Below, one piece after another: positions 21,094 through 22,826 of a stretch of DNA of 64,000 nt (position 1 is the first letter of the stretch; each line of letters starts with the position of its first letter). The notes under the pieces are model-generated. The model was not told the origin of the DNA. It did not search any database and saw nothing but the letters and a program-made list of their open reading frames with translations. Both the position numbers and the translations under genes were made by a program. Location: positions 864,001 through 928,000 of the forward strand of contig CM000152.2 in the NCBI GenBank assembly GCA_000004695.1. The letters are read 5' to 3'. The DNA comes from Dictyostelium discoideum (lineage: Eukaryota).

Positions 21094-22826
21094 ATGACAT
21101 CAAATCAACCAATTGATTTTAGTTTTAATAGTAACTCAAACATTCTTGGACCTGATATCTCAGTTGTTAATAGTGAAAATAATAATAGTAATAATAATAA
21201 TGCCAACAACAATAAAGACTCCAATAACATAATAGATATTCAAGAGACGGAAGACAATGAATCATATGTTAATATTGAAAGTTTAAGTATTAATACTCAA
21301 TCACCACAACCACCAGAACAACAACAATATGAACAATATGAACAACAAGAACAACAACAACAACAACAACAACAACAACAACAACAACAACAACAACAAC
21401 AACAACAACAACAACAATATGAACAACAATATCAAAATGAAGTAGATGATATAGATAATGATAAATTACCTTTGTTAAGTAATGATGAAATTGAAAGCAA
21501 AAAAGCAAAAGTAGAACCAATAAGGATAACAAATTATAACTTTTTAGAAGTATTAAAACCAGAATTAGTTAATTATATATTTTTAAAGGTTGGAGCTTTA
21601 GATATGACATCATTGATCGGAGTTAATAAGCAATGCTATAGAATCGGTATGAATGAAAAGCTATGGTTATATTTTGTAGAGAATGATTTTAGAGTGGACA
21701 TTCACGAGATACATCAATTGATTAGATTGAATGGTGGTGTACGTTCATTGTATGCAAATCTTTATTTTAAACAAAAGAATAGTATTCCAAAACAGTCATC
21801 GCCAAATCCATTGATCAAATATTTCCTTAAACCAATTTCAAAGTTACCAAGTTTATTCACTCGTAAAGAGTATAAAACCTTAATGTATGGTTTAGATAGT
21901 ACCGGTAAAACTACAATGCTCTACAAGTTTGCGCGTGGTGAAAATGTTAGAACCACTCATACAAATGGTTATAATGTTGAAGTGGTCGAATATAAATCTT
22001 GTGATTTTATTTGTTGGGATGTTGGTTATGAAGATTCTTCATTATCTCCTCAAATTTTATCACCAACAAATAGTAATAATAATTTAAATAATAATAATAA
22101 TAATAATATAAATAATAATAATAATAATAATAATAATAATAATAATAATAATAATAATAATAATAATAATAATAATAATAATAATAATAATAATAATAAT
22201 AATAATAATAATAATAATAATAATAATAATAATAATAATAATAATAATAATAATAATAATAATAATAATAATAATAATAATAGTAATAATAATAATAATA
22301 ATAATAGTAATAATAGTAGTAGGGTATCATCGCCGCAACATCAAAAACCGCCTGTTTGGCAACATTATATTCAAGATACTCAAGCAATTATTTTTATTAT
22401 AGATGCAACAGATAGTCAACGTTTAGTACGTCAAGCTAAAGAAGAGTTTTGGAAAATGGTAACAGATAAAAATGTACAAAAGATTGTAAATAACTTTAAA
22501 CAACCAAATCAAGATTCTTGCAAGGTTAAAGTTTTAATTTATGCAAATAAATATGATCAAACAAATCCTATGACAACTTTAGAAATTACTCAAGCATTAT
22601 CATTATTTAATTTACCTGATCATATAGTTTGGCATGTTCAAGTATGTAATTTATTATTATTATTGTTATTATTAGATGGGGATCCACTAATTATTGAATT
22701 GGTATACTAATTTTTTTTTTTTTTTTTTTTTTTTAAATTTAAAAAAAGGGTTGCTCGGCTATATCAAAAGATGGTGATGGATTATATGAAGGATTGGATT
22801 GGTTAAGTTCACAATTTGATTCATAA
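21094..22826 (+). CDS. F-box domain plus ARF/ARL-like small GTPase fusion protein, about 542 aa. Structure is join(21094..22641, 22749..22826). The GTPase switch II has lost the catalytic Gln. A roughly 75-residue poly-Asn insertion interrupts the GTPase fold.
   Basis: An N-terminal Asn/Gln-rich region is followed by an F-box (LEVLKPELVNYIFLKVGALDMTSLIGVNKQCYRIGMNEKLW). The ARF core has P-loop GLDSTGKTT; switch I RTTHTNGYNVEVVEY; G3 WDVGYED in place of WDVGGQD; then (AAT)n poly-N; then PVWQHYIQDTQAIIFIIDATD; G4 ANKYDQ. A GTATGT donor after ...WHVQ and an AAAG| acceptor restore the ARF C-terminus GCSAISKDGDGLYEGLDWLSSQF (cf. ARF1 CATSGDGLYEGLDWL). Confidence 0.7.

Follow-up and report, generated by a model that had tools for sequence, protein, structure and literature searches.

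Fusion of a divergent F-box with an Arf-type G domain without the switch II glycine and glutamine in Dictyostelium discoideum

We analyzed a 64,000-nucleotide stretch of the Dictyostelium discoideum genome (assembly GCA_000004695.1, contig CM000152.2, positions 864,001 to 928,000 of the forward strand), hereafter the window, whose numbering is used throughout. A gene at positions 21094 to 22826 encodes a protein that joins an F-box to an Arf-type G domain. The locus is the annotated gene DDB_G0278443, and the fusion is of a known kind that has already been catalogued. Its conceptual product of 541 amino acids (aa) is string-identical to XP_642368.1, named DdiArlX1 in the supplement of Vargová et al. 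(2021; PMC8358228); an exact-sequence look-up of the protein in a collection of 15 billion returned no match. In this protein and its dictyostelid orthologs, both the glycine and the glutamine of switch II are replaced. The reading that we consider probable, if only just, is that of a substrate receptor of an SCF (Skp1-Cul1-F-box) ubiquitin ligase, or of a Skp1-tethered adaptor, with the Arf-like domain as the recognition module.

An earlier reading of the locus, made from the sequence alone, had presented the F-box–ARF combination as no standard architecture known to it, and this claim of novelty has to be given up. Fig. S3 of Boland et al. (2022, J Biol Chem; PMC9485057) lists DDB_G0278443 with the same F-box segment and with "ARF" as its other domain. 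Vargová et al. (2021; PMC8358228) describe F-box–ARF and BTB–ARF fusions as recurrent; they leave DdiArlX1 unassigned within the ARF family and record no further domain for it, and their supplementary table 1 gives PpoArlX5 as a Physarum ARF-family protein with an F-box. The gene is annotated, and ARF-family members without the switch II glutamine are well known, among them ARL10, ARL13A/B, ARL15 and ARL16, in a review that also covers the classes of pseudoGTPase (PMC12722892). In a limited literature search, we found no paper naming DDB_G0278443 in its main text, no discussion of the conserved tyrosine and glutamate substitutions, of the homology to the Physarum family or of the poly-asparagine run in switch II, and no published test of the "decoy Arf" reading considered below.

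The Arf-type G domain and its switch II

The C-terminal part of the protein matches the Pfam Arf profile (PF00025) with 131.8 bits against a cutoff of 22.3 (E=2.4e-38), a match that is split in two by an insert, and its top PDB matches are all Arf1 (E=3e-39). Among solved and characterised G domains, Arf1 (human ARF1, D. discoideum ArfA/DdiArf1) is the closest. With the insert trimmed, identity to DdiArf1 is 41%. The alignment is ungapped from G1 through switch II, and the interswitch is therefore of the same length as in Arf1. The two proteins also share W66, W78, Y81 and a C-terminal GDGLYEGLDWLS motif, and the positions of the Arf triad are kept, with Y in place of F51 next to W66 and Y81. 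The elements of the domain are as follows.

21799..21867, + strand: segment matching the Arf N-terminal amphipathic helix, aa 236-258, SPNPLIKYFLKPISKLPSLFTRK, which aligns to Arf1 residues ~5-17
21889..21912, + strand: G1/P-loop GLDSTGKT, aa 266-273, with GxxxxGKT intact and invariant in the orthologs
22018..22032, + strand: switch II/G3 DVGYE, aa 309-313, in gap-free alignment to WDVGGQ of human Arf1 and DdiArf1
22546..22557, + strand: G4 NKYD, aa 485-488, with NKxD in all nine dictyostelid proteins
22752..22760, + strand: G5 CSA, intact and conserved in the nine dictyostelid proteins

The domain thus has the Pfam profile, the G1, G4 and G5 motifs and the switch I threonine (THTNGY) of the ARF family. 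The sequence-only reading was right to call G1, G4 and G5 canonical, and all three are conserved, as is the switch I threonine, in the nine dictyostelid proteins introduced below. The family motif that is missing is WDxGGQ. Its place is taken by WDVGYE, in which the DxxG glycine, Gly70 of Arf1, has become tyrosine and Gln71 has become glutamate, while the tryptophan and aspartate of the Walker B motif are retained. The gap-free alignment to Arf1 bears out this replacement of both residues, which had been proposed from the sequence.

In the Ras superfamily, the amide of the DxxG glycine contacts the γ-phosphate and drives the transition of switch II, and the glutamine that follows positions the catalytic water. 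A homolog search gave eight full-length orthologs (E=1e-157 to 1e-112), from species including Dictyostelium purpureum, Tieghemostelium lacteum, Polysphondylium violaceum, Heterostelium album and Cavenderia fasciculata, which makes nine dictyostelid proteins with that of D. discoideum. The eight orthologs have the same colinear F-box-to-Arf architecture, and all nine proteins read WD[VI]G[YF][EN] in place of WDxGGQ, so that it is an aromatic residue followed by glutamate or asparagine that is conserved. Since the pattern is found in nine of nine, the loss of Gly70 and Gln71 is, on this comparison, ancient, maintained and under selection in dictyostelids, and its retention across Dictyostelia strengthens the reading of the G domain as hydrolysis-defective. 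The block from G1 to switch II has 68% invariant columns, second only to exon 2, whose 72% is the highest value of all the blocks compared.

The protein departs from Arf1 in other respects. The ARF family has an N-terminal helix with Gly2, whereas DDB_G0278443 begins MTSNQ and has no Gly2; the segment that matches the helix is proline-interrupted, has 39% invariant columns among the orthologs and lies inside the protein, which makes N-myristoylation impossible. Besides G70Y and Q71E, the protein has additional loops in G5 and between α3 and β5, as well as an insert of 105 aa in switch II and the upstream F-box module. The AlphaFold2 model of the full length (541 aa) has a mean predicted local distance difference test score (pLDDT) of 42, and even the Arf core is poorly modelled.

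The combination of a lost glutamine with retained nucleotide-binding motifs is shared with ARL10, ARL13A/B, ARL15 and ARL16 and with the class II pseudoGTPases Rnd and RhoH (PMC12722892). DDB_G0278443 differs from all of these in having also lost the DxxG glycine, and it is orthologous to none of those ARLs, being 'unannotated' in the classification of Vargová et al. (2021; PMC8358228).

The divergent F-box and the myxogastrid relatives

Two conserved elements precede the G domain.

21535..21678, + strand: divergent F-box-like domain, aa 148-195, YNFLEVLKPELVNYIFLKVGALDMTSLIGVNKQCYRIGMNEKLWLYFV, recognised by profile-profile homology and Pfam-negative
21679..21798, + strand: helical linker, aa 196-235, ending LYANLYFKQK, conserved in all nine dictyostelid proteins and aligning to myxogastrid WKxFYxESYFKQ

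The claim of an N-terminal F-box holds as a statement of homology, established by profile-profile comparison, and has to be weakened as a statement of type: the domain is divergent, is negative in Pfam and reads LKPE rather than LPxE. Five of the orthologs read FLEALPQEIVNYIF...V[NS]K...LW over the same segment, which is the F-box form. When a profile of the N-terminal region built from dictyostelid proteins only was compared with the PDB, just three chains were matched at E<=10; each of them belongs to the F-box protein GID2 and is aligned in register over its F-box, with a marginal E=0.16.

A stronger comparison was provided by the relatives of PpoArlX5 from Physarum polycephalum. This protein is positive in Pfam for both parts (F-box-like, E=1.6e-13; Arf, E=2.5e-11), and a homolog search with it yielded a myxogastrid-type family of about ten proteins, most of which come from JGI or Logan metagenome contigs and most of which have precomputed Pfam matches to F-box and Arf. 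The dictyostelid and myxogastrid families were placed by hhalign in a single colinear alignment (probability 98.8%, E=5e-17) that starts at the F-box and continues to the C-terminus. The N-terminal regions alone were aligned with a probability of 74% (E=2.8e-5). With the 48 columns of the F-box alone, hhalign gave an ungapped match of 42 columns to the myxogastrid F-box, scoring 24.6 (P=4.4e-5), a value that neither the reversed alignment (6.6) nor any of 300 column shuffles (9.0±1.9, maximum 16.0) reached. The merged dictyostelid and myxogastrid profile matched 38 entries in the PDB, 36 of them F-box proteins, including GID2 (1.3e-7), Skp2 (4e-7), FBXW7, β-TrCP and Cdc4. The same segment had independently been predicted to be an F-box, by BLASTp (Boland et al., 2022; PMC9485057). 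We conclude that the N-terminal module is, by its sequence profile, a divergent homolog of the F-box, for which Skp1 binding is a prediction.

The two families share their whole layout: an F-box, a helical linker ending YFKQK/R, and an Arf-type domain from which GQ is absent. They also differ. The myxogastrid F-box is canonical and Pfam-positive, unlike that of DDB_G0278443, and the myxogastrid G domain is far more degenerate. It keeps the P-loop (GPKKSGKS) and G5 (SCS/SCC), reads WDxEDF for WDxGGQ and ATxW for NKxD, and carries an insert of 30-60 aa after the P-loop helix, in the region of switch I. The dictyostelid proteins, in contrast, keep NKxD in G4, have G1 and G5 intact and are ~41% identical to Arf1. 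As judged from these motifs, the myxogastrid G domain is a more advanced case of pseudoGTPase decay, and the nucleotide cycle seems dispensable for the core function of the family, since the myxogastrid members have lost NKxD and read WDxEDF. The dictyostelid protein is homologous to the Physarum-type family from end to end, and both most likely go back to one ancestral fusion.

Searches with the N-terminal profiles gave little beyond these two groups. With the merged profile, the homolog search returned two short F-box fragments only, and no wider taxonomic spread. A HMMER search of 1.84 billion representatives with the dictyostelid-only profile returned the dictyostelid orthologs and two other proteins, P0033 (3694 aa, E=1e-6, 10 separate stretches) and P0034 (541 aa, E=5e-5, 7 stretches), whose matches fall in the linker part of the profile and outside the F-box; these are probably low-complexity or repeat matches. 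In an isolated model, the linker (aa 196-235) is predicted to form helices with a pLDDT of 73-82.

Gene model, low-complexity tracts and neighbouring genes

The sequence-only reading had proposed a single gene of two exons, a model that agrees with the annotated product, with the conserved intron and with the colinear orthologs. Its parts, the low-complexity tracts that it contains and the gene downstream are listed here.

21094..22641, + strand: exon 1, 1548 nucleotides (nt), codons 1-516, ending on a codon boundary at ...WHVQ before GTATGT
22642..22748, + strand: intron, 107 nt, phase 0, GTATGT...AAAAAG (GT..AG), 15% GC
22749..22826, + strand: exon 2, aa 517-541 and the stop (26 codons), encoding GCSAISKDGDGLYEGLDWLSSQFDS, which includes CSA of G5
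21094..21528, + strand: N-terminal low-complexity region, aa 1-145, with ~1% of columns invariant among the orthologs
21306..21429, + strand: (CAA)n tract encoding poly-glutamine (Tandem Repeats Finder: period 3, ~41 copies)
22036..22350, + strand: insertion inside switch II found in D. discoideum only, aa 315-419 (105 aa), against 3-5 aa in all eight orthologs
22069..22315, + strand: (AAT)n tract encoding the poly-asparagine run (Tandem Repeats Finder: period 3, 82.3 copies, 93% matches, score 438)
23014..26500, + strand: downstream neighbour, a multi-exon glycosylphosphatidylinositol (GPI) ethanolamine-phosphate transferase (PF19316 PIGO_PIGG, E=3e-6, on the open reading frame 24116..26497)

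The unspliced open reading frame runs from the ATG at 21094 to 22710 and would encode neither G5 nor the conserved C-terminus of Arf. The ortholog of D. purpureum has a single intron of 70 nt at the identical phase-0 position, between WHVQ and GCSA. The splice model is supported by these two observations and by the identity of its product to XP_642368.1. A fusion of two genes by error was considered and rejected on the grounds of orthology and of the conserved intron.

The insertion in switch II lies between the acidic residue of the switch and PVW of helix α2. Between DVGYE and IIFIID we counted 77 asparagines, close to the 75 or so that had been estimated from the sequence; most of them are encoded by the (AAT)n tract, and the longest asparagine/serine run, of 70 aa, holds 66 of them. 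The repeat is read in its AAT (asparagine) frame, and its interruptions preserve that frame. A scan of the sequence found no in-frame GT..AG pair of at least 60 nt spanning the tract, and its removal by splicing was rejected on that basis. Runs of (AAT)n and poly-asparagine are typical of D. discoideum coding sequence. Since the orthologs have 3-5 residues where D. discoideum has 105, the comparison points to an (AAT)n expansion in D. discoideum only, and the poly-asparagine loop is not a feature of the family; the insertion proposed from the sequence as a feature of the architecture therefore stands for this species and falls for the orthologs. The loop is probably a tolerated, disordered and lineage-specific expansion rather than a functional element. 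Its location in switch II is curious, yet we can assign the loop no conserved function.

Other loops of the G domain have been enlarged elsewhere in the dictyostelids. The protein of Heterostelium album has an asparagine/serine-rich insert of ~45 aa just after NKxD, and similar inserts are found in the α3-β5 loop of the ortholog P0008 (~35 aa) and of Polysphondylium violaceum (~10 aa); these inserts were located at about columns 700-810 of the dictyostelid alignment. The scaffold of the G domain seems unusually tolerant of independent loop expansions at several sites. In the full-length AlphaFold2 model of the D. discoideum protein, aa 83-115, within the N-terminal low-complexity region, appear as one long helix of low confidence.

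The D. purpureum gene has a downstream neighbour of the same kind (Pfam PF01663 Phosphodiest, 5564..9309 of its locus), and the local synteny is thus conserved. In the AT-rich D. discoideum window (22.6% GC), the genes are separated by long A/T homopolymers. Two of them flank DDB_G0278443: ~70 nt of A-rich sequence (21000..21069) just upstream of the start codon, and a run of 92 T at 22902..22993 in the 3' intergenic region that separates it from the next gene. Elsewhere in the window, open reading frames encode an 886-aa protein with two AAA ATPase domains (13851..16508, - strand; PF00004, E=4e-90), a dual-specificity phosphatase (26641..27747, - strand; DSPc, E=6e-30) and a 948-aa protein with a PH domain at its C-terminus (46604..49447, + strand; E=2e-19).

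A possible adaptor role and its alternatives

Because the switch II glycine and glutamine are lost while the P-loop, the switch I threonine and the NKxD and SAK-type motifs are kept, the G domain is expected to resemble a class II pseudoGTPase: it would bind guanine nucleotide and be unable to hydrolyse GTP or to make the normal transition of switch II. The Arf-like domain could then act as a constitutive or static protein-binding module, whose nearly invariant face of switch I, interswitch and switch II may recognise a conserved partner. The F-box would dock this module on Skp1, and the protein would be an SCF substrate receptor or a Skp1-tethered adaptor. This model fits the protein in that the switch face is nearly invariant and the F-box lies N-terminal to the G domain. 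An N-terminal F-box is typical of F-box proteins (Boland et al., 2022; PMC9485057), and here the C-terminal domain is, according to Pfam, Arf-like and not WD40, LRR or Kelch.

Two known systems resemble the proposed arrangement. TRIM23/ARD1, an E3 ubiquitin ligase with RING, B-box and coiled-coil, likewise has a C-terminal ARF-family G domain fused to ubiquitin-ligase machinery. Vargová et al. (2021; PMC8358228) cite it as the model case of ARF domains that have repeatedly been drawn into ubiquitin circuits, and an E3 as well as a GTPase activity have been ascribed to it (PMC12075517). It differs in being a RING-type E3 rather than an F-box/SCF adaptor and in its metazoan origin, and there is no sign that the two fusions descend from a common one. 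RhoBTB, in which a Rho-type pseudoGTPase is joined to the BTB of a Cul3 adaptor, likewise pairs a non-cycling GTPase-like domain with an adaptor of cullin-RING ligases, and RhoBTB1/2 are class I pseudoGTPases (PMC12722892). The likeness is an analogy only: RhoBTB combines Rho, BTB and Cul3 and has its GTPase domain at the N-terminus, whereas DDB_G0278443 combines Arf, F-box and Skp1-Cul1 and has it at the C-terminus.

Several results weigh against an adaptor role. In Fig. S3 of Boland et al. (2022; PMC9485057), DDB_G0278443 is only in class 'b', meaning that it was predicted by BLASTp and not annotated in UniProt; it has no co-immunoprecipitation flag (v, s, u, m) and is absent from four data sets of Skp1 co-immunoprecipitation. 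This last point is absence of evidence rather than a direct test, and low expression may account for it. Neither the Pfam F-box (PF00646) nor F-box-like (PF12937) profile matched any of the nine dictyostelid proteins at E<=10. The canonical L-P of LPxE, present in five of the nine, is absent in D. discoideum (LKPE) and in D. purpureum. When 1.84 billion representatives were searched by HMMER with the dictyostelid-only profile, no F-box protein came up at E<=0.001; the F-box domain is too short for library-wide significance. The AlphaFold2 model of aa 140-255, made from the nine-sequence alignment, is all-helical with a pLDDT of 64 and has no Foldseek match in the PDB better than E=1.9, which does not count as evidence against an F-box. 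Finally, an insert of 105 aa in switch II is awkward for the idea of a conserved interface, at least in D. discoideum.

Among the alternatives, the one that survives best, although we find it unlikely, is that the F-box binds Skp1 only for the turnover of the protein itself, which would be an SCF substrate whose Arf-like domain is the working part, for instance in membrane traffic. The retention of the Arf N-helix segment and of the Arf triad positions (Y for F51, W66 and Y81) speaks for such a role. It is opposed by the loss of G70 and Q71 in all orthologs, with which the G domain is not expected to cycle normally, and by the internal position of the helix, which excludes N-myristoylation. 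The complete loss of NKxD in the myxogastrid relatives is a further argument against a classical Arf function.

Slightly less credible, in our view, is a degenerate F-box relic that no longer binds Skp1, which would leave the protein an Arf-like pseudoGTPase, atypical and extended at its N-terminus by helices. Such a relic would explain why the module is Pfam-negative in all nine dictyostelid proteins, why the LP motif has been lost in D. discoideum and D. purpureum, why the protein went undetected in the published Skp1 interactomes (Boland et al., 2022; PMC9485057) and why a low-confidence model (pLDDT 64) gave no structural match. Decay is at odds with the conservation of the module: 29% of its columns are invariant, compared to ~1% in the adjacent N-terminus, its mean identity to D. 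discoideum is 63%, and it stays in register with canonical F-boxes.

It is doubtful that the protein is a "decoy Arf" substrate receptor, in which a permanently GTP-like or nucleotide-independent domain derived from Arf1 would show the effector face of active Arf on an SCF ligase, so that Arf effectors or regulators would be captured and ubiquitinated. The captured partners could be coat adaptors, ArfGAPs (GTPase-activating proteins, GAPs) or guanine-nucleotide exchange factors. If true, this would couple the machinery of membrane traffic to proteasomal control in a manner specific to social amoebae and plasmodial slime moulds.

A G domain that still works as a GTPase by non-canonical catalysis, with Glu313 as a general base or with residues supplied by a dedicated GAP, appears improbable to us. 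G1, the switch I threonine, the Walker B aspartate, G4 and G5 are all intact, and the glutamine position holds a conserved polar residue, glutamate or asparagine, rather than a hydrophobic one. The DxxG glycine, however, is also replaced by a bulky aromatic residue in all orthologs. Equivalent changes of this glycine, G60A in Ras and G226A in Gsα, block the GTP-driven switch, a precedent that counts against a working GTPase, as does the fact that the myxogastrid relatives dispense with NKxD. That the gene model itself is an artefact, with two genes fused or with the AAT tract removed from the mRNA, is very hard to believe given one continuous open reading frame from the F-box through β6, eight colinear orthologs with the intron position conserved, and a repeat in its asparagine frame with frame-preserving interruptions and with no in-frame GT..AG pair of the required length across it.

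The architecture of F-box and ARF had already been catalogued, and DDB_G0278443 is thus not a new kind of system. What is added here is the end-to-end homology to the Physarum-type F-box–ARF family, the double loss of glycine and glutamine that is fixed in nine dictyostelid proteins with an otherwise preserved nucleotide pocket, and the recognition of the poly-asparagine loop as a repeat expansion in the middle of switch II that is found in D. discoideum only. These findings will not surprise a specialist and do not give access to any open question of long standing; they would be a reasonable lead for a Dictyostelium laboratory. If the protein is indeed an SCF receptor, it would provide an example, in a tractable model organism, of a pseudoGTPase serving as the specificity module of a ubiquitin ligase, and also a natural experiment in which switch II tolerates a disordered insertion of 100 residues.

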